Shown piece by piece: positions 5,722-30,246 of a stretch of 32,000 bases of DNA. The notes under the pieces are model-generated. The model saw nothing but the letters and a program-made list of their open reading frames with translations, was not told the DNA's origin and searched no databases. How positions within the stretch are numbered: the stretch's first letter is position 1; each line of letters begins with the position of its first letter. The translations under genes and the position numbers were made by a program. The stretch is from Geobacter sulfurreducens PCA (lineage in GTDB: Bacteria; Desulfobacterota; Desulfuromonadia; Geobacterales; Geobacteraceae): positions 2,760,001-2,792,000 of the forward strand of contig NC_002939.5 of NCBI RefSeq assembly GCF_000007985.2, read 5' to 3'.

Positions 5722-5781
5722 GCCGGCGACAAATTAACTGAAACAAATTCTACAAACCTCCTTTCCGGGCCGTCACCGAAA

Positions 5782-5797
5782 TGGCACTCAACTTGAA
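5782..5797 (+). promoter_or_regulatory. Weak sigma-54-like site upstream of the TMTC-like gene
   Basis: TGGCACTCAACTTGAA has a perfect TGGCAC -24 element and correct spacing, but the -12 dinucleotide is GA rather than GC. It lies 47 nt upstream of the ATG at 5844. Confidence 0.25.
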
Positions 5798-5843
5798 AGC
5801 CGTGAACAACTGCCCAGCTCAGCACACACGAGGTCACACCACC

Positions 5844-7460
5844 ATGGACACTTCCCGCTCCCCTGCCGCGGGCACCCACCCCCTGCTTCCGCCCCTCATC
5901 CTGGCGGCGGTCGCCCTGGGGGTCTATCTCGTTACCCTGGCCAACGGTTTTGTCTGGGACGACGGCTACATCATCGTGGAAAACCCGGCCACCCGCAGTT
6001 TCACCAGCCTGCGCGACATCCTCCTGTCGCCCGATATCGTGAAACCCTACTACCGGCCCCTCAACCGGGCATCCTACCTGCTGGACTTCCGGCTGTTCGG
6101 CATGAATCCGGCGGGATTCCACGCGGTTAACATGGTGCTCCACGCGCTGAACGTCCTGCTCGTCTACCAGCTGGGGAGGCGCCTGTTCAGTGCCGGACCG
6201 GCCGCGCTGACGGCCGCGCTGCTCTTCGCGGTGCACCCGATCAACGTGGAGACGGTTGCTTTCATCTCGGCGCGCAACAACCTCATCGCCCTCTTTTTTG
6301 CCCTGTCCTGCTTCCTGGCGTTTTTGCGGGGACGGGACACCGGCGGCTGGCCGTGGCACCCGGCCGGCGCGCTGCTGCTGTTCCTGGGACTCATGAGCAA
6401 GGAAACGGCCCTCATGGTGATCGTCCCCGTCTTCCTCTACGCGATCCGGCCATTTCACGGTACCGGCGACAGGGAAAGCGACCTTTTCCGGCCGTGGCTG
6501 TCGCTGCTCCCCTATATTGCCGCCATTGCCATCTACCTTCTGATGCGGTCTGCGGCCCTGGAAGGGGTACTCGGCACCGGCATGGCCGCGGCGGAGCTTC
6601 CCCAGCGCCTGGTCCGCAATCTCTATGTCATTCCGCGCTACCTGGCCCTGTTCCTTTTCCCGGCCGGGCTCACCATCTTTCATGAGGTGCCGCCGGGCTG
6701 GGCGTCGGCCCCCTGGCTCGTGCCGGCATGGCTCGTCATCGCGGCCGGCCTGTGGCTGCTCCTGCGCCGGGGCGGCCCGGCCGCCCGCTTCGGCCTGCTC
6801 TGGCTGGGGGTCAACTTCCTGCCGGTCGCCAACATCGTGCCCATCCCCAGCTACCCCATGGCCGAACGGTTCATGTATCTGCCCGCCGCCGGGTTCTGCC
6901 TGGTTGCGGGGGCCGTGCTGGGGGGGCCGCTGTTCGACCGGTGGGGGGCGCGGGTGGGCTGGGGGGTGGTGGGGAGCATCACGCTGCTCCTGGCCCTGGT
7001 GGCCGTTGAGCGGAACCGCGACTGGCGCGACGACGTCAGCCTGTTCGCCAGCGTGGTCGAGACCGACCCCCGCTCCGCCGAGGGGTATTTCAATCTGGGC
7101 TCGGCCCTGATCGAGCGGGGGGACACGGCGGGCGCCCGCGCGGCATGGGAGCGCGCCGTCGGGATCGACCCGCGCCACTCCGGGGCCCTGGCCCAGTTGG
7201 GGACCCTGGCGGCGCGGCAGGGGGACCTGGCCGGCGCCAAGGCCCGCTATCTGGCGGCGGTCGAGGCCAATCCCGCCAATGTCATGGCCCGCTACAACCT
7301 GGGCCGCATCTATGAAATGCAGGGAGAGCCGGCCCGGGCCGCGGAGCAGTACGAGCTCTTCCTGCGTTACGTGCCGGTGGAGTACGGCGAGTACGTGCCC
7401 GAGGTGCAGGCGCGGCTCGCGAAGCTCCGCGGCACGGCGGGGGCTGCCCCTGCGCCCTGA
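5844..7460 (+). CDS. Polytopic membrane protein with C-terminal TPR repeats, TMTC/PMT-like GT-C glycosyltransferase candidate
   Basis: Multiple hydrophobic helices are followed by TPR-like repeats ([44 protein letters not shown]). An N-terminal YYRPL motif and DGY segment are typical of this family. The start could instead be the ATG at 5781; 5844 has a GAGG upstream. Confidence 0.75.
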
Positions 7461-7569
7461 CCGGAACACCGCATTCCCCGACACCCCAACCTTCCGTCTC
7501 CGGCCGCTGCCGGCGCGGAAGCGGCACGACCGGCCATTTCGCCGCCGGCGGCCCCGACCCGGTGCCTAC

Positions 7570-8334
7570 ATGCTCAATTCACGCAGGATAGTTGTCGTGC
7601 TTCCGGCCTACAACGCCGAGAAGACGCTGGAAATGACCTACGCCGAGATTCCCTTCGAGCACGTTGACCACGTGCTGCTGGTGGACGACGCCAGCCGCGA
7701 CCGGACCGCCCAGGTGGCCGAGCGGCTCGGGATCAAAACCATCGTTCACGACCGGAACAAGGGTTACGGCGCCAACCAGAAGACCTGTTACCGGGCCGCC
7801 CTGGACCTGGGCGCGGACATCGTGATCATGGTCCACCCGGATTACCAGTACACCCCGAAGCTGATCACCGCCATGGCCGCCATGATCGCCTACGGCGAAT
7901 TCGACGCGGTCCTGGGCTCGCGGATCCTGGGCATCGGCGCCCTGAAGGGGGGCATGCCGCTCTACAAGTACGTGGCCAACCGGGTGCTGACCCTGGTGGA
8001 GAACCTGCTGCTGAGCCACAAGCTGTCCGAGTACCATACCGGCTACCGGGCCTTTTCCCGCCAGGTGCTGGAGCAGCTCCCCCTGGACGCCAACGGCGAC
8101 GACTTCGTCTTCGACAACCAGATGCTGGCCCAGATCATCTGGCACGGCTACCGGATCGGCGAGCTGAGCTGCCCGACCAAGTACTTCGAGGATGCCTCGT
8201 CCATCAATTTCCGGCGGAGCGTCATCTACGGCCTCGGGGTCCTGGGCACGGCCCTGGAGTTCAGGCTGGCGCGGATGGGCCTGATCAGGTCCGGGCGATT
8301 CACCCCCCGCAACGATCAGGCGGCGGCGCAATGA
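7570..8334 (+). CDS. Family-2 glycosyltransferase (polyprenyl-phosphate sugar synthase-like)
   Basis: A start at the internal ATG at 7570 gives [16 protein letters not shown], then DDASRDRT and HPDYQYTP, which are GT2 signatures. The track ORF from 7279 adds an Arg/Pro-rich N-terminus that looks non-coding. Confidence 0.9.
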
Positions 8335-9257
8335 CCCGCCTTTCCGCGTGCCGGGCCTGCGGCGGGCCGCTGGCCCCCTGGCTGGAGGGGGTTGCCGATC
8401 CCCAGACCGGCGAACGGTTTCACCTCACCAGGTGCGGCAGGTGCGGCCTGGGACACACGGAGCCGCACCCCGCCGACATGGCACCCTACTACGGGGCAGC
8501 CTATCACGGGGGCCGGCACGGCGTGACCGCTGCCTGGTGCGCCCGGCGCCGCATCCGGTGGGTAACCGCCGCCTGCGGGGGCGACGGCGCGGGCAGGCGC
8601 TTGCTGGATGTGGGGTGCGGGGACGGGACGTTTCTCCTGGAGGCGGGACAGCGGGGCTGGCGGACGGTGGGGACCGAGCTGAACCCGGCCGCGGCCCGGG
8701 AGGCGGGGCTCGACGTGCGCGGCAGCGTGGATGCCGCCGACGACGGCATCCCCTACGACTGCATCACCCTCTGGCACAGCCTGGAGCACATGACGGACCC
8801 CGGGAGGCTCCTGACGCGGCTCGCCGCCATGCTCGGCCACGGCGGGGTGCTGGTGGTGGCCGTGCCGGATGCCGGCGGGCTTCAATGCGGGTTTTTCGGC
8901 CGCCACTGGCTGCACCTGGACGTGCCGAGACATCTCTACCATTTCAACCACGGGTCCCTGGGGCGGCTCCTGGCCGCCGACGGATGCGCGGTCGTCCGAA
9001 CCATGCACCACGAGTTCGAGTATGACCTGATGGGGTGGCTCCAGAGCGCCCTCAACGCGCTGCTGCCGGTGCCCAACATCCTCTTTGCCGCCCTGACCGG
9101 CCGGCGCCGCCGCGGCGAGCACGGCGCTCTCACCCTGATCAGCCTCCTGCTGGCGGTGCTCTTCGCGCCGGCCGCGACGCTGCTGGTGATCGGGGAAACG
9201 CTCCTGGGGCGGGGCGGCACCCTGGTGATGGTCGCACAAAAAACGCCGCGCACGTGA
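8331..9257 (+). CDS. Class I SAM-dependent methyltransferase with N-terminal CxxC zinc-ribbon
   Basis: CRACGG...CGRCGL cysteine pairs and SAM motif [12 protein letters not shown]. The ATG overlaps the upstream stop codon (ATGA at 8331..8334), indicating translational coupling to the GT2 gene. Confidence 0.85.
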
Positions 9258-12609: not shown

Positions 12610-13050
12610 ATGATTTCAAAAGCTATCAGTGCCCAATGCCGCCACCTGCATCGGGCCGCCGTTCTTGTGGCAGTGATGTCCGCCCTTGCCGCAACCGGCT
12701 GTTCGAAGAAGGAGGCACCGCAGGCACCCGCGCCGTCCGCCGGGACGCCGCAGGCAGGGGCGCCGGCCGCCATGCCCGAGGGGATGAGCGGCCAGCAGCA
12801 AACCGCCATGGGACGGGCCATCTTCAACAAGCGGTGCGCCAGCTGCCACGGCACGGACGGCAACGGCGCGGGGAGCCGCAGCGGACCGGCACTCGACCAG
12901 GCCCAGTTCAAGTACGGCAGAACCCCCGAGGCAATCCGGGAAAGCATCGTCAAGGGACGCCCCAACGGCATGCCTGCCTTTGGAGCCGCCTTCCAGGAAA
13001 TTGAAATCGACACCCTGGTCGGCTACGTGATGGGTCTCACCAAGCAGTAA
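12610..13050 (+). CDS. Monoheme class I c-type cytochrome, probable lipoprotein
   Basis: 146 aa. Lipobox-like LAATGC, a single CXXCH motif (CASCHG), and a distal Met region NGMPAF typical of class I cytochromes c. Confidence 0.85.
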   Translation: MISKAISAQCRHLHRAAVLVAVMSALAATGCSKKEAPQAPAPSAGTPQAGAPAAMPEGMSGQQQTAMGRAIFNKRCASCHGTDGNGAGSRSGPALDQAQFKYGRTPEAIRESIVKGRPNGMPAFGAAFQEIEIDTLVGYVMGLTKQ

Positions 13051-13609: not shown

Positions 13610-14035
13610 ATGGCTAAAAGAATTCAGACCGTTACGAGAGGGCACATTACAGCCGCAGCGGCCCTGGTCATCGGCGTGCTGGCGGCATTCACCGCGGACG
13701 CCAATACGGGCCGGACCGCCGACGGTTCGGTACCACGCACCCCGGCCATCATAGCCACACCCGGCGAACGGACAATTCAAGCCGACCCCGCCTACCCGCT
13801 CCCCCAACCGGCAGAGCGAAAATCACGGACTGAGGCGCGCCGTTCAGGCCCCATTGACGGAGCTACGCTCTACTATACCGGCAACTGCGCCGGTTGCCAC
13901 GGCACCATGGCGAACATGAAGGGAACCACGGCGGAAATGATCCGCTTCGCCATCGACAACAACGTGGGCGGCATGGGCTTTCACGTGAACCTTACCCCGG
14001 AAGAACTCCACTCCATTGCCGACGCCCTCAAATAA
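13610..14035 (+). CDS. Small periplasmic monoheme c-type cytochrome
   Basis: 141 aa. GGAGG Shine-Dalgarno, signal peptide (AAALVIGVLAAFTADA), one CXXCH motif (CAGCHG). Confidence 0.8.
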   Translation: MAKRIQTVTRGHITAAAALVIGVLAAFTADANTGRTADGSVPRTPAIIATPGERTIQADPAYPLPQPAERKSRTEARRSGPIDGATLYYTGNCAGCHGTMANMKGTTAEMIRFAIDNNVGGMGFHVNLTPEELHSIADALK

Positions 14036-14339: not shown

Positions 14340-15083
14340 CTACCTTGCTACCGGCAGCCCCGCCTCCTTCCACTCGACGAACAGCGACTGGAATATTGAG
14401 GGATAGGCGAGGCCGATCAGCTTCTTGTAGGCCATGTAGCTGCGGCTGCCCGTATTGCAGTAGACAATGATCTTCTTTTCCTTGGGCAGTTGGTCGGACC
14501 GTGCCGCAAGCTGCTCGGCCGGGATATTGATGGCCGTGGGGATGTGCCCCTCCTCGAACTCCATATCATCCCTCACGTCGATCAGGACATAGTCCTGGCT
14601 GCCGGAGCGGATCATCCGGTCCAGCTCGGCTGCCGGGACTATGGTCGTCTCGATCTTCCTGCCGTAGCCCGCCCCCTTGACGATGGGGAGACCCCGCTCT
14701 TCCCAGACCGGCATCCCTTCGTTATAAACGGCAATGGCGGTGTAGCCCAGGGGTTCCACCTTTTTGGCCACCCGCTTGCTTTTGCCGCACTTGATACCGT
14801 TGCAGTAGAGAACGATGAGCTTCGCCTTGTCGGCCGGGAGTTGCGCCGAAGCGCTGTCGAAGGTCTTCTCCGGCACGTTGACCGCTCCGACGATGTGCGC
14901 TTCCGCATACTCTTCGGGGGTCCGGGCATCGATCAGCAGGAAATCCCGCTTCTCGTCGATCATGGCCTTCAGGTGGTCCGTGGTCACGACCGGGTAATCC
15001 CCGGCGGCCCAGCCGGCACCGCCGGCCAGGATGCCGAGGGCCAGGACGGCGCATGCCAGCGCACGCTGCACAATTTGTTTCAT
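14340..15083 (-). CDS. Periplasmic tandem-rhodanese sulfurtransferase
   Basis: The start is placed at the internal ATG at 15083, which has an AAAGGAGGA Shine-Dalgarno and opens MKQIVQRALACAVLALGILAGGAGWA (signal peptide). Two rhodanese domains carry active-site loops YCNGIKCGKS and YCNTGSRS. Confidence 0.85.
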   Translation of the reverse strand: MKQIVQRALACAVLALGILAGGAGWAAGDYPVVTTDHLKAMIDEKRDFLLIDARTPEEYAEAHIVGAVNVPEKTFDSASAQLPADKAKLIVLYCNGIKCGKSKRVAKKVEPLGYTAIAVYNEGMPVWEERGLPIVKGAGYGRKIETTIVPAAELDRMIRSGSQDYVLIDVRDDMEFEEGHIPTAINIPAEQLAARSDQLPKEKKIIVYCNTGSRSYMAYKKLIGLAYPSIFQSLFVEWKEAGLPVAR

Positions 15084-15199: not shown

Positions 15200-17197
15200 T
15201 CAGCGGTGCAGCCTTTTCCACTCCTCCATGCCCCCCTCGTAATTGCGGGCAGGGCCCAGGCCGGCCAGTTCGTGCACCATCAGGGCGTACGCCGACCGGA
15301 TTCCCCCGGCACAGTAATAGACAACGGGCCGGTCCGCATCGACCCCGTTCCTGGCCAGAAGCCTGCGCACCTCGGCCGGAGCCAGGGGGCGACGCTCCTT
15401 GCCCGTAAAGAACTTGTTCCAGGGGATGTGCACCGAGCCTGGGATACGTCCGGCGAGCCGCTCGAAAAAGGAGCGGGTATCGATAATCGTGACCGCGCCG
15501 AGCGAACGCTCCAGTTCGGCGGTGGTAATATCTTCCTCGGGCCGAACGGCAGAGCGGTACGTCAGGGTGCCGCCGCTGTACCGTTCATGGCCTCGCGTGA
15601 GGGGAAGTCCCGCGGCGGTCCAGGCCTGGATGCCGCCGTTGAGCATCCGCACGGGGCCCTTGTGCCCGAGCCAGGCCAGGACCCAGGCGGCCCAGCCCTC
15701 CCCTCCCCAGCTCTTGTCCGCATCCCCGTACACCACCACGGGAGTCCGCTCGTCGATCCCCATGGATCCCAGGGCCCGGGCGAGGTCGCGGGGCGGCCAG
15801 AGCTTGTAGGGGACCCCCTTGTCGTCCGTTCTGGTGTAGTTCTCCCACGAAAAGGAACGGGCGCCGGGGATGTGACCCGCCTGCCAGTCGGAGCGCGGAC
15901 GGCCGTCGAGCACCACCCAGGTTCCGGGGGCGCGCGCCAGGGTCTGGGGCTCCATCAGCCCGAAATCGCGGGCTGACGCACCGGAAACGGCAAGCATCAC
16001 CACAAGGACAGCCGCCGCCAGCATCAGGAGGATGAGTACGGCGGCGCGTCTCCCGCCGACAGCGCTGCCGACGCCATCGGCAGCGCTGCGGAAGGTCCGC
16101 TCCCGCGACGAGGCCACCGGGAGGCTGCGGCGCAACCGCCTCTTCAGCAGCAACCGGTTCAGGTAGGTCCGGGGACCGCTGGCCACCTTGACCCTGCCCG
16201 CCAGGGCGGCCTCAGGTTCGAAAAGCAGGTCCGCCACGTGGCTGGTGGGCGTGTGCGGACCGAGATACGAGGCGCAGCCGGCACAGTAGGTGATCGTCGT
16301 GCTGCCGCCGGCCTCTGCCGCGCGCAGGGAGGTCCATGCCCCGGCCAGGCGGGGCGCGGTGCAGCGGACCGCTCCTCCCTCGCCGCAGCAGAGGGTCCGG
16401 ACGCCGTGGTGGGGCATTTCCCGAACCCTGAGCCCGGCTGCGCCCAGCAGCGTTCTCACGGCCGCGTGCACCCCGGCGTTATCGCGCGAGACGCAGGGAT
16501 CGTGCACGGTCACAGCGCCCTCGGTCTGTTTGAAGCTGATGCCCGCCCGCGCCAGTACCTCGTAAACGGTGACCACCTCCAGCTCCGGGGCATAGCGGGA
16601 GAACACCTCATGGCAGTTGGGACAGGCCACCTGGACGGTCTTCACCCCCTGCGCCAGCAGGTAGGCCTTCATTTCGCCGAACATGGCCGTAAAGTGCCCG
16701 GATCGTCCCAGGTCGTGGGACGGCTTGGTGCAACAGTCGAGAACCATGCCGAGGGATGGTTCGCTGCCGCGCAGCAGGTCGAAGAGCTTCAGCGTTGTCC
16801 GGGGGCGGGTCCCCGGCAGCGCGCAGCCGGGGAAAAAGATCGTACGGCACCCGTCGGGGAGCCCGTACCAGGTGAAAAGTCTCGATGTCCCGGCCCGCTC
16901 GTAGGAAAGGAGCCCCCGGTAGGGAGACAGTTGCAGCGTACCGGCATCGGCGGTGGCGCGCCGCATGGCAAGGAACAGGGCGGCAGGATCGACCCCTTCG
17001 GGGCAGACCGCGCGGCAGAGGCCGCACAGGCTGCACCCGAAGGGGAGATGGGACTGGTCCAGTCGCCGGGGGTCAAAGGATGCTGCCAGCGCCTTTGGCG
17101 TGCCGTGCTCCCGCAGGAAGGCGCATTCGGCTACGCAGATGCCGCAGGCGGTGCAACGCGTCGCCACGTCACCGGCGGACCAGGGGGAATGACTCAT
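15200..17197 (-). CDS. HdrD/GlcF-like Fe-S + CCG-domain protein fused through one TM helix to a tandem rhodanese module
   Basis: Two ferredoxin-type motifs (CTACGICVAEC, CSLCGLCRAVCP) and two CCG-type Cys-rich regions (CCTKP...CPNC; CCGEGG...CAGC). An Arg-rich linker leads into a TM helix (AAVLILLMLAAAVLVVMLAV). Rhodanese 1 lacks the catalytic Cys (YGDADKSWG); rhodanese 2 has it (YYCAGGIRS). The ATG at 17197 overlaps the upstream stop (ATGA). Confidence 0.85.
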   Translation of the reverse strand: MSHSPWSAGDVATRCTACGICVAECAFLREHGTPKALAASFDPRRLDQSHLPFGCSLCGLCRAVCPEGVDPAALFLAMRRATADAGTLQLSPYRGLLSYERAGTSRLFTWYGLPDGCRTIFFPGCALPGTRPRTTLKLFDLLRGSEPSLGMVLDCCTKPSHDLGRSGHFTAMFGEMKAYLLAQGVKTVQVACPNCHEVFSRYAPELEVVTVYEVLARAGISFKQTEGAVTVHDPCVSRDNAGVHAAVRTLLGAAGLRVREMPHHGVRTLCCGEGGAVRCTAPRLAGAWTSLRAAEAGGSTTITYCAGCASYLGPHTPTSHVADLLFEPEAALAGRVKVASGPRTYLNRLLLKRRLRRSLPVASSRERTFRSAADGVGSAVGGRRAAVLILLMLAAAVLVVMLAVSGASARDFGLMEPQTLARAPGTWVVLDGRPRSDWQAGHIPGARSFSWENYTRTDDKGVPYKLWPPRDLARALGSMGIDERTPVVVYGDADKSWGGEGWAAWVLAWLGHKGPVRMLNGGIQAWTAAGLPLTRGHERYSGGTLTYRSAVRPEEDITTAELERSLGAVTIIDTRSFFERLAGRIPGSVHIPWNKFFTGKERRPLAPAEVRRLLARNGVDADRPVVYYCAGGIRSAYALMVHELAGLGPARNYEGGMEEWKRLHR

Positions 17198-17616
17198 TTG
17201 CCCGATTCGCAGAGCTGGGGATGGGGCCACCCCTCCATTCCTTTTTCAAGGATGAAGAGCCGCTTCTCATCCACGCCGCGGGACTTCAGGTAGTCATAGG
17301 TGTTCTTGGCACCGCCGCCGCCCCGGGGGCAAACGATAACCACTTCATCGGCGGAGGCGTTGATCCGCTCGAGGGTCTTGTCGAGCCGCTGCTTTTCCTC
17401 GTCGCTCTTGACGGGATAGGCGTTGGTTTCGAGGGAGCCCTTGAAATGGCGCTTCTGGAACGATTCGGGGGTCTGGATGTCCACGATGACCATGGACTTG
17501 CCGCCTTCGACCCACTGCTTGAATGTGTCCTGATTCACGTACCGGTAATCGGCCGCCAGCGCCGCTACCGCGAAGGCCACCACCATCATTGCTGCCAGCA
17601 CTACTACTTTTCTCAT
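17194..17616 (-). CDS. Periplasmic single-domain rhodanese
   Basis: 140 aa. AAGGAG Shine-Dalgarno, signal peptide (VVLAAMMVVAFAVAALA), active-site loop VCPRGGGGAKN. Confidence 0.85.
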   Translation of the reverse strand: MRKVVVLAAMMVVAFAVAALAADYRYVNQDTFKQWVEGGKSMVIVDIQTPESFQKRHFKGSLETNAYPVKSDEEKQRLDKTLERINASADEVVIVCPRGGGGAKNTYDYLKSRGVDEKRLFILEKGMEGWPHPQLCESGK

Positions 17617-17643: not shown

Positions 17644-18807
17644 CTAGGCGGTCCTCTTCATTGAACGGTGGACAATTTCGAGGAATGCCTCGACCCGGAC
17701 CTTGAGCTGGCCCGTGTCCGACTCCGAATAGTCGGTTTCGATCTGGAGGAACGGCAAACCGGTCCGCTGCTGGAGATGCTTCTTCAGGACCGATGATTCG
17801 ACGGCATAGGTATGGCACCCGAGCCAGGTCAGGTCCACGACTCCGTCCACGCGGAATTCGCGCGTCAGGCGCTCCACCAGCTCCAATCGGCCGGTATTTG
17901 GCGACATGCATGAGCAGGGCACCTTCAGGTACCGTTCGGCGATGGCCCGAAGCGGGTCGCCGCCCTCCCGCACCTGCTCCACCTTCTTGTAAGCCCCGCA
18001 GCTCTCCAGGCAGACCACCGAAGCGCCGCTCTCCTCGATGATCCGGATCAGCTTTTCCGAACCGACTCCCACCGGCACGCCGGTGAGCAGAATCCGCGGG
18101 GTGGATTCGGTGAAGGGGGAAATGCCCGCCGCGGCCATCTGCCGCAACTCAGCCGCGAACCGGTCCACCAGCTCGATGGCTGCCCGCCGGTCCACGGAAA
18201 AGCCGCGGTTGTGAAGGACGGTCAGCAGGTCGAGGCCGCTGATGGGGGACGGGATGGCCTTGCAGACATCCTGGAGGGCCTGGAGGGACCGGCGTTCTTC
18301 GTTCATGAGTCGGATGGCTTCGGTCAGGGCCTTGTCGGTGATCCGCACCCCGAACTCCCGTTCGAGCCGGGTCTTGAGCCGACCGATCTCCATGAGCCAG
18401 TAGTCCAGGGCAGCCTCGTCCTGGATCTGGGGAAGCTGCATCACATGGATCGGCTTGAGCTCCCCCAGGAGCTCATACATCTTTTTCTTGCCGTCGCAGG
18501 TGGTCTCTGCCAGGAGGAAGTCGGCAAAGTGAAAATAGGGACAGGTGTCCGTGACGGCAAACCCGTAGCTCGACTTGATGAGCGGACAGAGGTTGCGGGG
18601 CAGCACCTTCTCGGCCGCGGGGATCGGCTTCTGGCTCGTGCCGCAGAGCGACACGGGAATGGCGCCGGCCGCCAGAATCAATTCCGTCGGCGAGAAGAGA
18701 CAGTAGGTGCCCACCGCGTGCCGGCCGGCTTCCCTGGCCTCCTTGAGGGCGATGAGATTGCGCTCCTTGAGGGTGGCAATCTCGGCAAAGGTTTCTGAAT
18801 GTATCAT
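17644..18807 (-). CDS. 2-hydroxyacyl-CoA dehydratase (HGD-D) family protein, double-cubane-cluster-protein-like
   Basis: 387 aa with the family's scattered cysteines (GTYCLFSP, SLCGTS, NLCPLIK, DTCPYF, TTCDGKKK, VVCLESCG, VPCSCMSP, LGCHTY). It lies directly downstream of an activase-type ATPase and appears as a single subunit, not an alpha/beta pair. Confidence 0.8.
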   Translation of the reverse strand: MIHSETFAEIATLKERNLIALKEAREAGRHAVGTYCLFSPTELILAAGAIPVSLCGTSQKPIPAAEKVLPRNLCPLIKSSYGFAVTDTCPYFHFADFLLAETTCDGKKKMYELLGELKPIHVMQLPQIQDEAALDYWLMEIGRLKTRLEREFGVRITDKALTEAIRLMNEERRSLQALQDVCKAIPSPISGLDLLTVLHNRGFSVDRRAAIELVDRFAAELRQMAAAGISPFTESTPRILLTGVPVGVGSEKLIRIIEESGASVVCLESCGAYKKVEQVREGGDPLRAIAERYLKVPCSCMSPNTGRLELVERLTREFRVDGVVDLTWLGCHTYAVESSVLKKHLQQRTGLPFLQIETDYSESDTGQLKVRVEAFLEIVHRSMKRTA

Positions 18808-18840: not shown

Positions 18841-19602
18841 CTACGCATTGCAGCCGATGAGGGCGGCGCCGAGGGCGCCCACGATCTGGGGGTCTTCCGG
18901 CACGTGCAGGGAAAGCCCCAGCCGCCGGGCGATGACGCCGCTGATGGAGCCGTTGGTGGCGAGTCCCCCGGTGAAGGTAATCCCCTCGTGGGCTTCCAGC
19001 CGCCCCACCAGCCCTTCCATCCGGCGGGCGATGGCGTCGATGATGCCGGCCGCAATGGCGCCCTTGGGCGTTCCCTGGGCGAGGAGGCCGATGATTTCCG
19101 ATTCGGCGAAGACCGTGCACATGCTGGTGAGCGGCACCGGTTCGCTGGACGCGGCCAGGGAGCCGAGCTCGTCGAGGGTGAGGTCGAGGATGCCCGCCAT
19201 GACCTGGAGAAAACGGCCGGTGCCCGCGGCGCACTTGTCGTTCATGATGAAGTCGGATACCGACCCGTCGTCGCTTACCAGGATGACCTTGCTGTCCTGG
19301 CCGCCGATATCGATGACCGCGCGGGTGTCGGGATTCAGGTACCAGGCCCCGCGCGCGTGACAGGAAATCTCCGTGACCCGCTGGTCGCTGAACGGCAGAG
19401 ATACCCGGCCGTAACCGGTGCCCACCACGCGGGAGACGCTTTCTTCCCGGAGGCCGGCGGACGAAAGAGCTTCGCGAAAGGCCCGAAGGCCCGCCTCGCG
19501 CGGCTCCCAGCCGGTGGGTACCACTGCCCGGCCGCGAACCATGCCGTCGAACACGACTGCCTTGGTGGCGGTGGAGCCGATGTCGATCCCGACACTCACC
19601 AT
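18841..19602 (-). CDS. BcrAD/BadFG/HgdC-type activase ATPase (ATP-dependent electron-injecting reductase)
   Basis: The start is placed at the ATG at 19602, which has a GGGAGG Shine-Dalgarno. ASKHA phosphate-1 motif GIDIGSTATKAV, and the two cluster-bridging Cys contexts DKCAAGTGRF and CTVFAESEIIG. Confidence 0.9.
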   Translation of the reverse strand: MVSVGIDIGSTATKAVVFDGMVRGRAVVPTGWEPREAGLRAFREALSSAGLREESVSRVVGTGYGRVSLPFSDQRVTEISCHARGAWYLNPDTRAVIDIGGQDSKVILVSDDGSVSDFIMNDKCAAGTGRFLQVMAGILDLTLDELGSLAASSEPVPLTSMCTVFAESEIIGLLAQGTPKGAIAAGIIDAIARRMEGLVGRLEAHEGITFTGGLATNGSISGVIARRLGLSLHVPEDPQIVGALGAALIGCNA

Positions 19603-19651
19603 ATCTGCCTCCCGCCGCAGCAGCGCCGCGGCATCACACAATCAGCACCCA

Positions 19652-20239
19652 TTACAGGCGAATGACGGAACCGGCCGTGAGCAGCGCCTCGGCCGTGGTG
19701 AACATATTGGTTACCGTTCCGGCCGCGAGTTTCTCCTTGCAGTGGAAAAAGTCGAGACAGACGCCGCAAGAAAGGACCTCTACACCCCGGTTGCCCAGCT
19801 GCTCCAGCGCCTGAAGCACCTCCGACCCTTCGGTGGTGAGGAGCACGCCCGAGTTGAGGAACATCATCCGGTCAGGGAGACTCTCCTGGTCGAGCAGCGT
19901 AATGATGAAGCTCTTCATCAGGAGCCGGCCGAGGTCCTCGGGGCCGTCGCCCAGGCGGTCAGAGGTGATGAGCATGACCGTCCGGCCCTGCCGCGCGGGG
20001 TTCTCCGCCGGGGCCGAAGGGGCGCCCTCCCCGCTGCCGATGGTGATGGCAAAGCCGCCGTCCGCCTCCTCGACAGCCACCCTGAATCCCCGGTTGGCGG
20101 CGAAGCGGGCCACGTTCTCGCGGGGCGCCCCCGCATCGACGAGCACCCGCACGGTCTCTCCGCCTGCCTCCTCCAGTGCCCGCTTGGTGGTCACCACCGG
20201 AGCCGGGCACGCCATATTCCTGCAATCGATCGTTTTCAT
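19652..20239 (-). CDS. yedF: YedF-type protein (TusA/SirA-like domain fused to DsrE-like domain)
   Basis: 195 aa. N-terminal TusA motif CRNMACPAPV. The C-terminal DsrE/DsrF-like half reads RTVMLITSDRLG...VEVLSCGVCLDFF. This length and architecture match the YedF family. Confidence 0.8.
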   Translation of the reverse strand: MKTIDCRNMACPAPVVTTKRALEEAGGETVRVLVDAGAPRENVARFAANRGFRVAVEEADGGFAITIGSGEGAPSAPAENPARQGRTVMLITSDRLGDGPEDLGRLLMKSFIITLLDQESLPDRMMFLNSGVLLTTEGSEVLQALEQLGNRGVEVLSCGVCLDFFHCKEKLAAGTVTNMFTTAEALLTAGSVIRL

Positions 20240-20255: not shown

Positions 20256-20773
20256 CTACATCCAGAGGACCCAGGAGTCCTGGATGTTCTTCATGAGCCA
20301 GTCGCCGGCAGCCTTTTCCACGAAATCGAACTTGTCGCCCCCCACGGCGCCGGCATATTCGGCGCACGGCGGGCAGACGCCGAACCAGGCCCCCTTGTCC
20401 TTGAGCTTTTTCATGATGCTTTCGGCATTGCCGAACTTCTTGAAGATGGGGGATTCGATCCGCCCGGCCTTGTTGCTGTTGGCCAGATCGGCCCCTTCCA
20501 GGTCATCCAGACGTGGAGCTTGCCCCAACCCTTGTCGGCAACCACCTGGGCCATGAGCAGGGCAAAGACGGCACGGTTCGGGTCATTGCCGCCATTGGTG
20601 ATGACGATGACGTATTTGCCCTTCCCTTCCGGATCACCCGCAAATGCCTGCCCCCCCATGAGTCCGGCAAGGCCGGCCGCGCCGAGCCCCATGCCGATGG
20701 TCCTGAGGAAGTCACCCCTCGAAACCGCTTCCGCTACCGAAGATTCCGGGCACTCCGTTTCTTCCCTTTTCAT
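20256..20773 (-). pseudogene. DsrE-family exported protein with CPPC motif, interrupted by a 1-nt frameshift
   Basis: ORF 20411..20773 encodes a Tat-like signal (SRGDFLRTIGMGLGAAGLAG) plus KYVIVITNGGNDPNRAVFALLMAQVVADKGWGKLHVWM. ORF 20256..20528, in the -1 frame, continues LEGADLANSNKAG...WFGVCPPCAEY. Restoring one C in the minus-strand ATGACCTGG (plus-strand GG at 20501..20502) gives a continuous HVWMTLEGADLA. Confidence 0.7.
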
Positions 20774-20827
20774 GAGAATCCCTCCGTGATAAATTCATAG
20801 GATAAAATTATGCAAATTATCGACTAA

Positions 20828-20856
20828 TTGACAGAAACAGGTCAAATTGATATTTT
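20828..20856 (+). promoter_or_regulatory. Sigma-70-type promoter for the LysR gene in the divergent AT-rich region
   Basis: TTGACA (20828..20833), 17-nt spacer, TATTTT (20851..20856). The opposite strand carries TTGACC, an 18-nt spacer and GATAAT, a candidate promoter for the operon. Confidence 0.4.
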
Positions 20857-20899: not shown

Positions 20900-21796
20900 A
20901 TGAACCTCAAGCAGCTCGAAGTATTTCTGGCCGTCGCCGAGAGCGGCAGTTTCTCCCGTGGCGCCGAAGCCACCTTCCTTACCCAGTCCACCGTAAGCCA
21001 GCACATTGCCGCCCTGGAGAGCGAGGTGGGCGTGCGGCTCCTGGACCGGACGAGCCGAGGGGCGCTCCTCACCGAGGGGGGGAAAATCCTGCTGGAGCAC
21101 GCCCGGAAAGTGGTGGCCGGCAGCCGCGAGATCAGCAAAGTCATGCGGCGGTTCCGGGGACTTGAGGAGGCGGAGTTGCGCATCGGCGGCAGCACCATTC
21201 CCGCCGACTACATGATTCCCGCCATGCTCGCCTCGTTCCTGGGCCGGCACCCCGGCGTCCAGGTGACGCTGCTCCAGGGGGACAGCCGCGACATCCTGGA
21301 CCGGATCGAGCGGGAGGACGCGGAGGTGGGCATCATCGGCAGCCGTTTCGACGAGGAGGGGTTCACCTTCACCCCCCTCGGCCGGGACGAGATACGACTC
21401 ATCGCCGCCCCGGACCATCCTCTGGCGGGCACCGGAGCCGTTCCTCTCGCCGAGCTGGCGAACCACGGCTTCGTCTTCCGCGAGCTGGGGTCGGGCACGG
21501 CCAAGAGCGTTGCCGAGGCGCTGGCGGGGGCGGGCCTGCCCGCCGAGAAGCTCCACGTCCGCGCCTGCCTGGGAAGCAACGAGGCGGTCAAGCAGGCCGT
21601 TGCGGCGGGACTCGGCCTGTCGTTCGTGTCGGAGCTGTCGGTGCGCAAGGAACTTGCCCGGGGCGAACTGGTCGAACTGCCGGTGGAGGGGCTGACCATT
21701 GCCCGGACCTTTTATCTCGTCGCCCGTACCGGCCGGGAACTCTCCCCCCCGGCAGTCGCCTTCATCGGCGAACTGACCGGAACCCGGCTCGCCTGA
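20900..21796 (+). CDS. LysR-family transcriptional regulator
   Basis: 298 aa. The N-terminal wHTH MNLKQLEVFLAVAESGSFSRGAEATFLTQSTVSQHIAALE is canonical LysR. The gene is divergent from the sulfur-carrier operon. Confidence 0.95.
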   Translation: MNLKQLEVFLAVAESGSFSRGAEATFLTQSTVSQHIAALESEVGVRLLDRTSRGALLTEGGKILLEHARKVVAGSREISKVMRRFRGLEEAELRIGGSTIPADYMIPAMLASFLGRHPGVQVTLLQGDSRDILDRIEREDAEVGIIGSRFDEEGFTFTPLGRDEIRLIAAPDHPLAGTGAVPLAELANHGFVFRELGSGTAKSVAEALAGAGLPAEKLHVRACLGSNEAVKQAVAAGLGLSFVSELSVRKELARGELVELPVEGLTIARTFYLVARTGRELSPPAVAFIGELTGTRLA

Positions 21797-26063: not shown

Positions 26064-27944
26064 CTATTCCCGATCATCTCTGCCGTACTTTTTTCGATCC
26101 TTTCCCTGTCCCTCGTCCCGCCGCTCCCGGGCCGGACGCTGGAGTTCGGGCTCGCGGGCCTGTTCCGGGCGGGGTGCGGGACGATTCGAGATTTCCCGCC
26201 CCTGGCCGCCGGCACCGGCGGGGGGCGCCGGCTTTACCTGCGGTGTCTGCTCCTCGGGGGCGGGGGCCTGCCTTTTCATCTCCGGCACCTGCTTCTTTAC
26301 CTCCGGCATCTGCTTCCTTGTGTCGGGGGCGGGCGTCTTCACCTGGGGCGACCGTTGCTGGACGCGGGGCTGACGCACCGCATCATCCGGGCGTGGCGGG
26401 GGGGACGGCGCCTTGCCGGGAACGGCGCGCGGTACCGGGGGCGGGGGAGCGTTGCGTCCCTTCCCTTCTGGTGTCCGTTCGCGACCGGAGGGAAGCCCGG
26501 CACCTTTTCCGCCCTGCCGACTGCCGGACGGCGCCGGCGCGGCTTCCTGGCGATGCGGCGTTTCGCGGCGCTTGACCCGCATTTCGTCGGCCTGGCGGCC
26601 GGGGCTGAAGACCGATCCGGCGTCGCCGGGAACCGTGCGGCGGTCGCGCCGTACCTCCTCCGGTTTCAGCTTCCTGATGCGCTCCGGCGGCTGCCGTTCG
26701 GGTGCTATCCGCTTGTCGATGGGGCGCCGGGTTTCCCGGGCGGGCCTGATGGCCGGGGGACCGACCTCGACTCTGGCGGAGATGAACGGGTTCTCCCGCG
26801 CAATCGAACGCCCTCTCCTCCCCGTGATGAATGTGTCCCGGTCGATGATGGTGACGGCGTTGCGGACGTGAATGTGGCGGTATGTGCGGACCACTACCGG
26901 ATTCACCGCCACGTTCGTGATATCAACGCTGAAGGGGCCGTAAAAGCCGATGCCGTAGTAAATCTCCCCTGGCGCCAGCGGGACCCAGGCCACGGTGTCC
27001 GAGCTGTACACCCACCCCACGTACCCAGGCCCCCAGTAGGCGGCGCCACGGGAGGGAGGCACCCAGCACCAGCCGACCCGGGACACGAATACCCACCGCC
27101 CGTAATGGTAGGGTGCCCACCCCCAGGGCTCATAGGAGATCCAGACGTAGGAGCCACGCACCCACGTCCACCGCCCCAGCCGATAGGGGGCCCAGTCCAC
27201 GGCGGCTGAGACCCGGGGCGACCAGACGTAGCCGTACTCCCTCGCGTAGAGCCACCGGCCGTTGGCGTCCAGGTCAGCCGCGTAGTCGTCCAGTTCGTCG
27301 GGAACGTAACGGAGGCTTTCAGCCGCATCGGCCAGCAGCCGGTCCCGCTTCCGGTTCCAGGTTTCCCACTCGTCGGGCGAGCCGATCGGGGCGATCTCCG
27401 CCTGCTCGTCGGCCCTCAGCCGCAGCTCGCTGCCGGCGGAGACGCGTGTCGTGCCCTGGCGGGTCTCCACCACGGCATAGCCCTTGATCACTGCCACGAC
27501 CGCGGTCCCTCCGCTCGTGGCGTCAACCATGACGATGGAGTTGTCGTAAATGCCGGTCGAGGCGTAGGGGGTGTCGACCCGGATGCGGTCGACCCCGCCC
27601 TTGCGATTGGTGAGATAGGCCCGTCCTTCGGCCAGGCTGAGCTGGAACGATTCCCGGCCCAGGTCGACGATGTCGAGGGCGGTCCGGGCATCGACCCGCA
27701 CCTGGACTCCTCCCCGCACCTGGATCTCCGCCCGGCTCCCGTCCGGCGACCAGAGCCGGTCTCCTTCGGCCAGCGGCGTATTGACCGCCGCCGCTACCCA
27801 CTCATTGGTGTCCTCGGTGAGTATCTGCACGTCTCCCGCCACCAGCGAAAGCCGGGCAGTACCAAGCTCGGCCGCGCCGACAACCGACGCGACCCAGAGG
27901 ATCACAATGGCGCACAACGCTGCTGCGCGACTCACGATTCCCAT
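26064..27944 (-). CDS. FecR-domain protein with WxxGxW-type Trp/Tyr-rich repeat region and basic Pro-rich C-terminal tail
   Basis: The start is placed at the ATG at 27944, which has a GGGGAGG Shine-Dalgarno and opens [24 protein letters not shown]. FecR-like beta region ([13 protein letters not shown]...), then [12 protein letters not shown] / [14 protein letters not shown] / GWCWVP repeats. A long low-complexity P/R/K/E tail ends the protein. Confidence 0.75.
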
Positions 27945-28176
27945 GATCAACCTCCCCTCAGGCGTCCCGGGCGGGTGCTCTGCGGAAGGATTCCGGTCAC
28001 GGCCGCCGGCTGCGACCCAACTGACCGGAATTACCGGCACACAGCACCCCGGCGGGATACCGGGCTGTTTTACAATTCTAGCGATGGACGGGCGGGGCGC
28101 AACGCACCCTCCATCCATCTGGCAAAGACCGCTCCTTTTCGCTATACTGTCGGACAATTCGCGTCCCGGAGGTCCC

Positions 28177-30246
28177 ATGGCCCGCCCCCCCCTCGACCAG
28201 GTCCGCACCATCGGCATCATCTCCCACATCGACGCCGGCAAGACCACGGTGTCCGAACGCATCCTCTTCTACACCGGTGAAACCCACAAGATGGGCGAAG
28301 TCCACGACGGCGAGGCGGTCATGGACTGGATGCCCCAGGAGCAGGAACGGGGAATCACCATCACCTCCACCGCCACCGTTTGCACCTGGCGTAACCACCG
28401 GCTCAACCTGGTGGACACGCCCGGACACATCGATTTCACCATTGAAGTGGAACGGAGCCTCAGGGTCCTCGACGGCGCAGTGACCATCTTCAGCGCCGTG
28501 GAGGGGGTCCAGCCCCAGAGCGAATCGGTCTGGCGGCAGGCCGACCGCTACGGGGTCCCCCGCATCTGCTTCATCAACAAGATGGACCGGGTCGGCGCCG
28601 ACCTGCGGGGCACCCTGCGTCAGATGGAAGAGAAGCTCAAGGCCCGGCCGGTGCTTCTCCAACTCCCCGTGGGCGAAGAAACCGGCTTCCGCGGGGTGAT
28701 CGACCTCCTTGCCGAGGAGCTGATTACCTTTGCCGACGGGGACCAGGGACGAACGGTCAGCCGGGGTCCCGTGCCTGCGGACCTGCTGGACGCGGCCCGC
28801 GAGGGCCGGGATGCCGTTGCCGAGGCGGCCGCCGATTTCGACGACGCCATCCTCGCCGATCTCCTGGAAGGCAAGGATATCACCGCCGCCCGGCTGCGGG
28901 GCGCACTCAGGCTCGGCGTCCTGGCCTGCCGCATCTTCCCGGTGCTCCTGGGCTCTGCCCTCCGGAACAAAGGGATCCAGCCATTGCTGGACGCCGTGGT
29001 CGACTTTCTCCCCTCGCCCCTTGACGTTCCCCCTGCTAAGGGCAAACGTCCCGGCAGCGAAACCGTTGACGAACTCCCCTGCGACCCCGGCGGCCCCTTC
29101 TGCGCCCTGGCCTTCAAGGTCCAGTCGGAGGATGGACGCAAGCTCACCTATCTCCGGGTCTATTCGGGCACCATCAAAGCGGGCGGCGCGGTCTGGAACA
29201 GCTCCCGGGGGTGCTTCGAGAAGCTCGCCCGGCTCTTCCGGATGCATGCCCACAAGCGGGAACAGATCGAGGAGGCGGCCGCCGGCGACATCGTGGCGGC
29301 GGCAGGGCTCAAGGAGGTGCTGACCGGCGACACCCTCTGCGACCCGGCCCACCGGATCGTGCTGGAGGGACTGGCCGTGCCGGAGCCGGTGGTATCGCTG
29401 GCGGTGGAGGCGCGTGGGGTCGACGACCGGGACAAGCTCCTGCCGGCCCTGGAGAAGCTCCAGTGGGAAGACCCCACCTTCCGGGTCCACGAGGACGAAG
29501 AAACGGGCCAGACCATTCTCACCGGCATGGGTGAACTCCACCTGGAAGTGGTTGTGGACCGGCTGCAGAGGGAATTCGGCGTAGGAGTTAAGACCGGACG
29601 ACCCCAGGTGGTCTATCGGGAAACCATCACCCGGGCGGTGGAGCGGCGGGAGATCTTCCGGGCCGAGCATGAGGGAAAAGTCCAGGGGGGAGAGGTTCTG
29701 CTGCAGCTGTCGCCCCTGCCGCGAGGGGCCGGGGTGCGGGTGAACGTGCCGGACGCCGCGGAACTGGGCATCGGCAAGGAGTTGCGGGACGCGGTGGCCG
29801 ACAGCATCGGCCGGGCCTGCTCTGCCGGGGCCCGCACCGGCTACCCCCTCACCGATCTGGAGGTACGGGTGGCGGCGATTCCGGTGGAGCCGGGCGTTAC
29901 CACTGACGCGGGGGTTCGGGCGGCGGCAGGCAGGGGGCTCATGCTGGCGGCCCGGGACGCGGGGCCCACGCTCCTGGAGCCGGTCATGAACCTGGAAATC
30001 GTCATCCCGGCCGACTATGCCGGCAAGGTCCTCGGGTCGGTTCAGCAGAAGCGGGGACGGATCGAAGGAATCAGCAGCCAGGGCGACACGGAGACCATCC
30101 GGGCGTCGGTCCCCCTGGCGGAAATGTTCGGCTACATGACCGAACTGCGCAGCGCCACCAAGGGGCGCGGCACCTACACCATGGAATTCTCCCACTACGA
30201 TCGGGCCCCGATCGAGGTGCTGCGGCGCTTCGGCCTGGAGGCGTGA
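28177..30246 (+). CDS. Elongation factor G paralogue
   Basis: The start is placed at the ATG at 28177 with a GGAGG Shine-Dalgarno. G1 [10 protein letters not shown]3 DTPGHIDF, G4 NKMDR, and full EF-G domain II-V length (689 aa). It is not in an rpsL-rpsG-fusA-tuf context. Confidence 0.95.

Follow-up and report, generated by a model that had tools for sequence, protein, structure and literature searches.

A fused HdrD-like iron-sulfur protein and tandem rhodanese in Geobacter sulfurreducens traced to an in-frame deletion between two neighbouring operon genes

HdrD, the HdrB-HdrC pair and DsrK share a module in which two ferredoxin-type motifs for [4Fe-4S] clusters are followed by two complete CCG domains, and in HdrDE and DsrMK this module is adjoined by an HdrE/DsrM-type cytochrome b at the cytoplasmic membrane face. 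The membrane-bound, HdrD-like ETF:menaquinone oxidoreductase EtfD has the Fer4 and double CCG module covalently joined to five transmembrane (TM) helices with b haem; it has lost CC-dyad cysteines, holding a linear [3Fe-4S] cluster and a His-completed, non-catalytic one, and its clusters form a wire to haem b and menaquinone (PMC13083937). Among sulfurtransferases, bovine rhodanese/TST, 3-MST/SseA and A. vinelandii RhdA combine an inactive N-terminal domain with a catalytic C-terminal domain bearing a six-residue CX4R loop, and are cytoplasmic or mitochondrial. Exported rhodanese-fold carriers of sulfur or selenium include Sud (Wolinella), YnjE and PspE (E. coli) and ExtH (G. sulfurreducens), which differ in domain number and subfamily and none of which is fused to a cytoplasmic Fe-S protein. 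Here we analysed a 32-kb stretch of the Geobacter sulfurreducens genome (the whole stretch is called the window) in which one 665-aa open reading frame (ORF) unites an HdrD/DsrK-like Fe-S/CCG module (N-half) with a tandem rhodanese (C-half) through a single hydrophobic helix. The striking separation of a sulfurtransferase from a redox module by a single helix is explained in ordinary terms by a strain-level in-frame deletion.

The closest database match was a 665-aa 'rhodanese-like domain-containing protein' of Geobacter sulfurreducens with 98% identity, an annotation name that conceals the Fe-S half. The exact window protein was recorded on 79 contigs, and fused alleles of 665, 657 and 647 aa were found in KN400 (ADI85274.1), subsp. 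ethanolicus, Geobacter sp. 60473 and others. The longest reading frame (15200..17230 (-), 676 aa) opens with GTG; the real start is the ATG at 17197, where start codon and stop codon of the upstream rhodanese gene overlap (caaATGAgtc), and it gives 665 aa, equal in length to the database orthologues. The neighbours of the fused gene match GSU2507-GSU2515 (GGDEF/EAL, two small cytochromes c, TPR/PMT_2 and a histidine kinase), a region that is the most polymorphic of the genome, with the most single-nucleotide polymorphisms (SNPs), in the PCA/KN400 comparison (KN400 paper).

The 90% cluster of the window protein also holds stand-alone forms of each half. Stand-alone Fer4/CCG proteins of 414/415 aa stop just past the TM helix (…GGRRAALILLMLVAACAFGVFVVGSDMLGWGAFR*), and P0392 and P0002 likewise have their C-terminus directly after their TM helix. 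A stand-alone rhodanese of 285 aa (WP_226048272.1, 'MULTISPECIES Geobacter'; G. anodireducens) starts MERCRGRFVLLTVLVAAVVVVLAASGASA|RDFGLMEPQ, where SGASA|RDFGLMEPQ is the c-region and cut site of its Sec signal peptide. Three G. anodireducens-type contigs (L166-L168) proved fully syntenic with the window and showed the two genes side by side, in the order LysR, DsrE-like, YedF, activase, double-cubane reductase (DCCP), Rhod140, Fer4/CCG (415 aa), a 99-nt spacer, Rhod (285 aa), Rhod247 and cytochrome c.

Aligning the window with one of these contigs (L167) located the junction. Window 17230-16009 matched L167 6621-7843 at 92.7% and window 16005-15200 matched L167 8053-8858 at 94.7%, while the distance from first ATG to last stop was 2205 nt in L167 and 1998 nt in the window, so that 207 nt (69 codons) are gone, in frame. 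Lost relative to L167 are the last ~19 Fer4/CCG codons, the stop codon, the 99-nt spacer with its GAGGAGG ribosome-binding site (RBS), and the first 17 rhodanese codons. Residues A385-A396 of the window protein descend from the tail anchor, and V397-A409 come from the signal peptide (h- and c-regions). In this reading, the net deletion placed the first ~12 residues of the Fer4/CCG anchor helix ahead of what remains of the rhodanese signal peptide, namely its last ~8 hydrophobic residues and the c-region SGASA. The two parents of the hybrid are a cytoplasm-facing HdrD-like protein, tail-anchored on the inner membrane, and a Sec-exported periplasmic tandem rhodanese. Because the split state was seen in every other lineage examined, the event is read as a fusion and not as a fission. 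Taken as a whole, the best explanation is probably that the fused gene is a recent natural in-frame union of two adjacent operon genes.

The presence of two genes at the same place in close relatives, together with a 1-nt frameshift in another gene of the same operon in the window, could raise the suspicion that an error of assembly or sequencing, or a frameshift, has produced the junction and united genes that are truly separate in this genome. The chance of this is negligible and the idea is effectively refuted already, since the same ORF, whether as the identical 665-aa protein on its many contigs or as alleles of three lengths, occurs in independently sequenced strains, and since split and fused forms differ by a clean net 207-nt in-frame deletion and by no slip of 1-2 nt. 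A preliminary description of the locus had named, as one outcome that would overturn it, an assembly or frameshift artefact joining two separate genes at the junction; the many independent genomes speak against an artefact, whereas two separate genes are what the syntenic sisters display, 99 nt apart. That description had also reasoned that the fusion implies either an unrecognised transmembrane partner or an anchoring or sensing role. The evidence gave no support to the inference of a partner or a sensor, and of the alternatives named it favours anchoring.

Two other routes to the fused gene were considered and rejected. In a more distant relative (L002), GT2 (glycosyltransferase) and GT87-like genes separate Fer4/CCG from rhodanese, and a simple deletion from such an ancestor (Fer4/CCG, GT2, GT87-like, rhodanese) does not fit the drop in identity from 96% to 82% across the junction. 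Judged by alignment, L167-type genomes, at 93-95% on both sides of the junction, and not L002, appear to be the direct parent type. An internal translation start for the rhodanese half was likewise set aside, as the native RBS and ATG lay within the deleted segment; the remaining in-frame ATG/GTG candidates are inside the helix only and carry no Shine-Dalgarno-like sequence. As separate observations on L002, the window forms a mosaic with it (16084/15968 vs 3163/5383), with an identity of 96.2% as far as the linker but of 82.3% over the rhodanese half, which suggests recombination in the most SNP-rich region of the genome, and L002 encodes a 642-aa four-rhodanese lipoprotein downstream.

Against the split L167 genes, the ratio of nonsynonymous to synonymous substitution rates (dN/dS) was 0.22 in the N-half and 0.08 in the C-half, showing purifying selection on both halves. 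These ratios reflect constraint on the genes in general, not since the fusion.

The domain inventory of the preliminary description (two 4Cys motifs, two CCG domains, an Arg-rich stretch, one helix and two rhodaneses) was recovered by Pfam, cysteine pattern and hydrophobicity. The Pfam scan returned Fer4_17 (E 1.1e-10)/Fer4_8, CCG (E 1.4e-9; as a stretch, the second CCG domain alone passes) and two Rhodanese domains (E 8.8e-33). Across 30 aligned family members, the Fer4 cysteines proved invariant or nearly invariant and those of the two CCG motifs invariant. The Arg-rich stretch KRRLRRSLPVASSRERTFR...GGRR covers residues 352-384; in the AlphaFold2 model of the N-half (mean predicted local distance difference test score (pLDDT) 88.6, predicted template-modelling score (pTM) 0.88) a helix at 343-358 and a strand at 363-365 were seen, and the basic segment 343-369 is, as modelled, part of the fold and no loose linker.

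Residues 385-404 form the single hydrophobic segment, with a 19-residue Kyte-Doolittle mean of 3.22 against 1.23 for the next best elsewhere. Charges are strongly biased around it, at +11/-2 in the 40 residues before the helix and +1/-2 in the 15 residues after. The full-length AlphaFold2 model (mean pLDDT 87.8, pTM 0.59) had one helix, 382-403, bordered by low-confidence linkers at 375-382 and 404-409, and its pTM is consistent with two independently placed modules. The Fe-S half is without any signal sequence, and the basic segment (YLNRLxLK…SRERTF) plus TM helix is conserved across its stand-alone and VTT-fused relatives. The best 120 C-half matches were all stand-alone proteins. Of these, 94 begin with a hydrophobic leader, whose median length is 31 aa. 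In the 99 leaders that have 15 or more residues, counted at the site aligning with ASA|R410 of the window, position -3 was A in 53 and V in 30 (83 A/V) and position -1 was A in 77 and G in 13 (90 A/G), and in this exported tandem rhodanese subfamily the small -3/-1 residues precede a conserved (D/N)(L/F)GL(I/M)E. On the strength of the charge bias, the signal-less N-half, its conserved tether and the exported-type leaders of C-half homologues, the Fe-S/CCG module is predicted to be cytoplasmic and the rhodanese pair periplasmic, the same arrangement that the preliminary description had reached from the positive-inside rule.

The hybrid helix would serve as an internal signal-anchor through which the rhodanese pair is translocated, and neither electrons nor sulfur would have to move along it. 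We saw no GxxxG-type dimerisation motif in the helix by eye, and a transmembrane electron relay of the DsbD/TsoB type (rhodanese-DsbD), which has a multi-helix DsbD core with paired Cys inside the membrane, does not describe the protein, which has one hydrophobic segment without Cys and scored 29.5 bits with the TsoB model against a cutoff of 805. The window protein keeps the h-c part of the signal peptide (…VLVVMLAVSGASA|RD), its n-region being replaced by the Fe-S protein; the last K/R lies 25 residues from the predicted cut, compared with 15-27 in typical stand-alone leaders. Cleavage by signal peptidase I after SGASA is plausible but not assured, and we would put it at an even chance or slightly better. 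If cut, the protein would regenerate the two separate proteins of the sister strains; if uncut, the rhodanese would be membrane-tethered. In both cases the physical outcome is the same as in the sister strains, an anchored cytoplasmic Fe-S module and periplasmic rhodaneses. A precedent is Bradyrhizobium FbcH, the cytochrome b-c1 precursor, a polyprotein split by an internal signal peptide. In FbcH as in the fused protein, a single ORF contains a hydrophobic stretch away from its ends, with an AXA-type site behind it, and in FbcH the downstream part is exported and released. FbcH is old and fixed, whereas the Geobacter form is a strain-level deletion and its processing is only predicted.

The N-half has an HdrB/HdrD-like fold by its AlphaFold2 model and Foldseek, which returned EtfD (9ojn, E 4e-12, TMq 0.62), LutA (2e-7) and HdrB (5e-5). 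A PDB sequence-profile search with hmmsearch agreed (M. smegmatis EtfD 9ojn, E 1.9e-18; HdrB, 8e-6), making EtfD the best PDB match by both structure and sequence. As in HdrD, the two CX2CX2CX3C motifs are followed by two CXnCCXnCX2C motifs with CC dyads intact, and like HdrD and DsrK the N-half would work at the cytoplasmic membrane face; unlike HdrDE and DsrMK, it has its own TM tether and no adjoining HdrE/DsrM-type cytochrome b gene. Pfam and NCBIfam, run on the operon genes and on most of the other large window ORFs, gave no HdrE or cytochrome b, nor was one called in the syntenic loci L166-L168, and the sole haem proteins seen are small periplasmic cytochromes c. Like EtfD, the window protein has its Fer4 and double CCG module covalently joined to the membrane, with one helix and no haem site in place of EtfD's five haem-bearing helices. 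A pure electron wire to quinone of the EtfD kind is possible but less likely, because both CC dyads are kept in the Geobacter family, as in catalytic HdrB and not in EtfD, and because a haem-binding membrane domain is missing.

Named NCBIfam families did not take in the N-half. DsrK (NF045796) gave 28.9 bits against a cutoff of 400, and the GlcF and TfrB cutoffs were missed. The best NCBIfam match was NF045663 'diclust_near_Sec' (pyridine nucleotide-disulfide oxidoreductase/dicluster-binding), at 207.6 bits over positions 298-668 of a 759-position model and below its cutoff of 530 bits; the N-terminal flavoprotein part of that model is absent from the fused protein, and the two share a Se/S-carrier neighbourhood (YedF, double-cubane reductase).

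The C-half, by its profile matches, is a standard TST/3-MST-type tandem rhodanese. PDB searches returned 1uar (E 4e-29), 3-MST 3olh (7e-27) and bovine rhodanese 1rhd (3e-21), with weaker matches to YnjE (3ipo, E 6e-12) and Sud (1qxn, E 6e-6), and the SseA model (NF008557) fell short at 67.7 bits against 250. It shares the inactive N-domain, catalytic C-domain and six-residue CX4R loop of TST, 3-MST/SseA and RhdA, from which it differs in being exported, a property that it has in common with Sud, YnjE, PspE and ExtH. Its loop, CAGGIRS, differs from both the TST type (CRKGVTA) and the MST type (CGSGVTA). The catalytic Cys was confirmed in the second rhodanese only: YYCAGGIRS spans residues 627-635 with C629, whereas GDADKS stands at the matching site of the first domain. 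In the alignment (A2), the Cys, two Gly and Arg of C629-A-G-G-I-R634 were invariant, with GDAD at the first-domain site.

To assess how rare the architecture is, we used a HMMER scan of 1.84 billion representative proteins. Besides the Geobacter fusion, P0003 (662 aa) alone covered both halves. The architecture is thus rare, and no paper describing the fusion was found, in agreement with the preliminary description, to which no described HdrD-rhodanese fusion was known. The N-half of P0003 was the most distant of 123 sequences from the window protein (45%) and its C-half ranked 77th of 123. P0003 is thus an independent fusion, as it is sister to the Geobacter protein in neither half, and these half-wise distance ranks led us to reject one ancient fusion common to both. 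P0003 lies at L001 1787-3775 (Logan SRR31323341) between a PAS histidine kinase and a pyridoxal phosphate-dependent enzyme; its hydrophobic segment is shorter and more signal-peptide-like (RLLPLFLLGTILLSAGTSFA|ANLG), with the SFA|A site kept.

Elsewhere the two families meet in a different setting. Relatives of the Fer4/CCG family occurred in 526 GTDB species genomes, mostly Desulfobacterota and Nitrospirota. Among the 80 GTDB species loci returned, of which G. sulfurreducens itself was not one, about 55 were VTT fusions and 14 had a rhodanese within 10 kb; Fer4/CCG and rhodanese neighbours were also found in L002, L004 and L005. Where the rhodanese subfamily occurred in metagenome contigs with 3 kb or more of upstream sequence (33 loci), Fer4/CCG was present in 15, VTT in 16, GT2 in 22 and a 281-aa protein in 19. 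The usual cluster order is the 281-aa protein, which resembles an outer-membrane barrel, Fer4/CCG-VTT, a polyprenyl-phosphate-type GT2, the exported tandem rhodanese, a periplasmic 171-aa protein, in some loci the radical SAM protein ArsS, a CelA-like GT2 and a GT-C (~473 aa). The Fer4/CCG module was seen fused as Fer4/CCG-VTT, VTT-Fer4/CCG and Fer4/CCG-LPG_synthase_TM, the last with the MprF flippase domain (P0250, P0251, P0256, P0257, P0313). Loci with the cluster include L004 5325-15418, L116, L118, L131, L132, L134, L136, L149, L161 and L164. TIGR04282/TIGR04283 'arsenosugar' glycosyltransferases lie near the cluster in L004, and fusion forms of ~830 aa bear an extra polytopic C-terminal extension.

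In a second context, GTDB loci carry stand-alone Fer4/CCG with YedF and/or a double-cubane reductase, a family that co-occurs with SelD (bioRxiv 10.1101/2022.07.06.499078). The G. sulfurreducens operon unites both contexts, with VTT and GT2 lost: no homologues of the VTT, GT2, ArsS, 281-aa or 171-aa cluster proteins were found in the 32-kb window, and Pfam gave no VTT match in the fused protein. Fusions of COG0586 DedA with rhodanese and of COG0398 DedA with pyridine nucleotide-disulfide oxidoreductase have been noted and left unexplained (PMC10127716). In them, as in the Fer4/CCG-VTT proteins that make up most N-half relatives, a DedA-type membrane domain is recurrently coupled to a domain of redox or sulfur chemistry; unlike the Fer4/CCG-VTT proteins, the window protein has no VTT and retains only the helix that precedes it. 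The Fer4/CCG-VTT/GT2/rhodanese envelope cluster is apparently undescribed, and its function can only be inferred.

The fusion serves as a 'Rosetta stone' tying an uncharacterised, widespread HdrD-like family to an exported sulfurtransferase subfamily, a link drawn from the fusion and, independently, from gene neighbourhoods in many other taxa. The HdrD-like module differs from HdrDE, DsrMK and EtfD in being membrane-tethered by its own helix or a flippase-type domain in place of a cytochrome b subunit. As G. sulfurreducens is genetically tractable, respires S0 and reduces selenite, and as close relatives include both fused and split forms, one can test directly what the module does and what becomes of an internal signal peptide made by deletion. 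The Fer4/CCG-flippase-rhodanese cluster is a more interesting lead than the fusion itself.

For the function of the two halves together we offer a tentative proposal. The periplasmic rhodaneses may bind or transfer sulfane sulfur or selenium in a Sud-like manner, in polysulfide or selenite handling, and on the cytoplasmic side TusA-type YedF may carry the substrate of the HdrD/DsrK-like module, a persulfide, trisulfide or selenotrisulfide that the module would reduce. G. sulfurreducens S0 respiration uses a periplasmic polysulfide reductase (PMC13510729), and ExtH, a rhodanese-like lipoprotein of this species, belongs to a cluster implicated in selenite/tellurite reduction (PMC5877670; cited in PMC13510729). 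It is distinctly doubtful, though conceivable, that the recurrent fusions and clusters mark an undescribed envelope pathway, with the cytoplasmic HdrD-like reductase coupled to the translocation of a lipid-linked sugar bearing S, Se or As and the periplasmic sulfurtransferase processing that sugar. Its parts may be Fer4/CCG with a VTT or MprF-type flippase domain, the polyprenyl-phosphate-type GT2, GT-C, the exported tandem rhodanese and the outer-membrane-barrel-like protein, often with ArsS. If this were true, the Geobacter fusion would be a minimal uncleaved version in which catalytic ends act on one membrane-embedded carrier from opposite sides.

Several points weigh against the explanation that we prefer, a recent union of two genes working in sulfur or selenium handling. 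Localisation and processing are predictions from sequence and model. The hybrid h-region is internal and has 20 residues, compared with 17 in the stand-alone signal peptide, and this greater length and internal position could make it a poorer substrate of signal peptidase I. That the event was a fusion and not a fission is read from the wide spread of the split state rather than from a rooted strain tree. Fused and split forms diverge by just 5-7%, so SGASA retention and low dN/dS say little on selection after the fusion. The substrates were assigned from the genes next door (YedF, rhodaneses, double-cubane reductase) and by comparison with DsrK/DsrC and Sud; in most other taxa both families sit in the glycosyltransferase/flippase cluster, which points to different chemistry, and the assignment is weak because that context fits no known pathway.

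The fusion could itself be adaptive, giving an uncut bitopic protein that holds the rhodanese above its Fe-S/CCG partner at 1:1 while a separate DedA/VTT-type or other carrier passes the S/Se substrate. We judge this rather unlikely: the same two families have fused independently twice, relatives have Fer4/CCG joined to flippase-type domains (VTT in either order, LPG_synthase_TM), the h-region is long enough for a stable anchor and the fused form is fixed in several G. sulfurreducens strains, but no homologue of VTT, GT2 or another carrier was found in the window, two separate proteins suffice in the sister strains, both independent fusions keep a signal-peptidase-type site, and the single deletion that suffices for a fusion may be neutral. 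The intact catalytic and cluster-binding residues, dN/dS values of 0.08-0.22 across both halves, an ORF intact in many strains and the retention of all that export needs (positive-inside flanks, hydrophobic core, AXA site) leave only a slight chance that the fusion crippled one half, by failed rhodanese export or Fe-S misfolding, and that the gene is a tolerated, decaying remnant. In favour of such decay, the deletion took from the rhodanese its RBS, start codon and n-region, PCA and KN400 show their highest polymorphism here, the first operon gene is frameshifted, and two other periplasmic rhodaneses of the operon could compensate. Still more improbable is a transmembrane redox or sulfur sensor relaying the state of the rhodanese Cys through the helix to the Fe-S/CCG module, or the reverse. 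The single-pass architecture with globular domains on both sides and the nearby genes for a LysR regulator and a sigma-54 activator would suit it, but the protein is without an output domain, disorder is predicted for both linkers that flank the helix, which would make them poor at transmitting a signal, the helix was put together by accident from two helices with no relation to each other, and the covalent link is absent in sister strains.

Table 1. Positions in the window of the fused gene, its parts and the neighbouring genes
Feature	Coordinates	Strand	Remarks
Fused ORF, 665 aa + stop	15200..17197	(-)	GSU25xx region, G. sulfurreducens
Ferredoxin-type motif 1, CX2CX2CX3C	17123..17155	(-)	C15-C25 (CTACGICVAEC)
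Ferredoxin-type motif 2, CX2CX2CX3C(P)	17003..17035	(-)	C55-C65 (CSLCGLCRAVC)
CCG domain 1	16613..16825	(-)	C125-X29-C155C156-X35-C192-X2-C195; CC dyad kept
CCG domain 2	16274..16495	(-)	C235-X34-C270C271-X33-C305-X2-C308; CC dyad kept; Pfam CCG match
Family-conserved basic helix and strand	16091..16171	(-)	Residues 343-369, YLNRLLLKRRLRRSLPVASSRERTF
Flexible cytoplasmic linker (predicted)	16046..16090	(-)	Residues 370-384, ends RR
Single TM helix (predicted)	15986..16045	(-)	Residues 385-404
Deletion junction, inside TM helix	16005..16009	(-)	About A396|V397
Inherited signal-peptidase I type c-region SGASA	15971..15985	(-)	Residues 405-409; predicted cut before R410
Rhodanese domain 1	15593..15964	(-)	Without catalytic Cys (YGDADKSWGGEGW)
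Rhodanese domain 2	15203..15532	(-)	Catalytic C629; CX4R loop (CAGGIRS, 15293-15313)
Downstream tandem rhodanese with signal peptide	14340..15083	(-)	Start MKQIVQR, 247 aa as in L167
Upstream single-domain rhodanese with signal peptide	17194..17616	(-)	
Double-cubane-cluster reductase	17644..18807	(-)	NF040772, 510 bits
Activase ATPase	18841..19641	(-)	BcrAD_BadFG / TIGR00241
YedF (TusA-like + DsrE-like)	19652..20239	(-)	TIGR03527, 227 bits
DsrE-like first operon gene	20256..20773	(-)	Frameshifted in window
LysR-type regulator (putative), divergent	20900..21796	(+)	Read from translation

Signal-peptide-like leaders, which the preliminary description had reported for the two flanking rhodaneses, are indeed present in both (MRKVVVLAAMMVVAFAVAALA|AD and MKQIVQRALACAVLALGILAGGAGWA|AG). 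At the head of the operon, the DsrE-like gene has a Tat/Sec-like leader (…SRGDFLRTIGMGLGAAGLAGL…) and a 1-nt deletion near 20501 that gives two frames (ATGA-CCTGG for ATGACCCTGG); it is intact in L167 3077-3595 (172 aa), and the frameshift in the window is either a pseudogene or a sequencing error. The syntenic LysR gene of L166-168 carries precomputed HTH_1 and LysR_substrate Pfam matches. Sigma-70-like sites were found on both strands of the LysR/operon intergenic region at 20807-20856 (minus strand TTGACC-18-GATAAT), and none within or just upstream of the fused gene, a pattern consistent with a single transcript running from the DsrE-like gene through the genes behind it.

Two small monohaem cytochromes c adjoin the operon at 12610-13050 (+) and 13610-14035 (+), probably GSU2513-like and GSU2515-like. 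GSU2515 is reported to be highly expressed in current-consuming biofilms and to donate electrons to PccH (PMC13591261); in the literature on the GSU2512-2524 region this cytochrome alone was found to have been studied, with nothing on the fused gene. Further along, a trio of PMT_2/TPR GT-C, GT2 and methyltransferase genes occupies window 5781-9257 (+). In G. anodireducens-type contigs this trio lies directly beyond the cytochrome c, adjoining the rhodanese operon, whereas in the window a GGDEF/EAL gene and the second cytochrome c intervene. The GT2 of the trio is not homologous to the cluster GT2. At the far side of the window, 27670-30246 (+) encodes an EF-G-like ORF of 858 aa in which GTP_EFTU begins at residue 177 and spreads 273 residues over a 188-position profile, which may reflect an N-terminal extension or insertion, or an over-called start.

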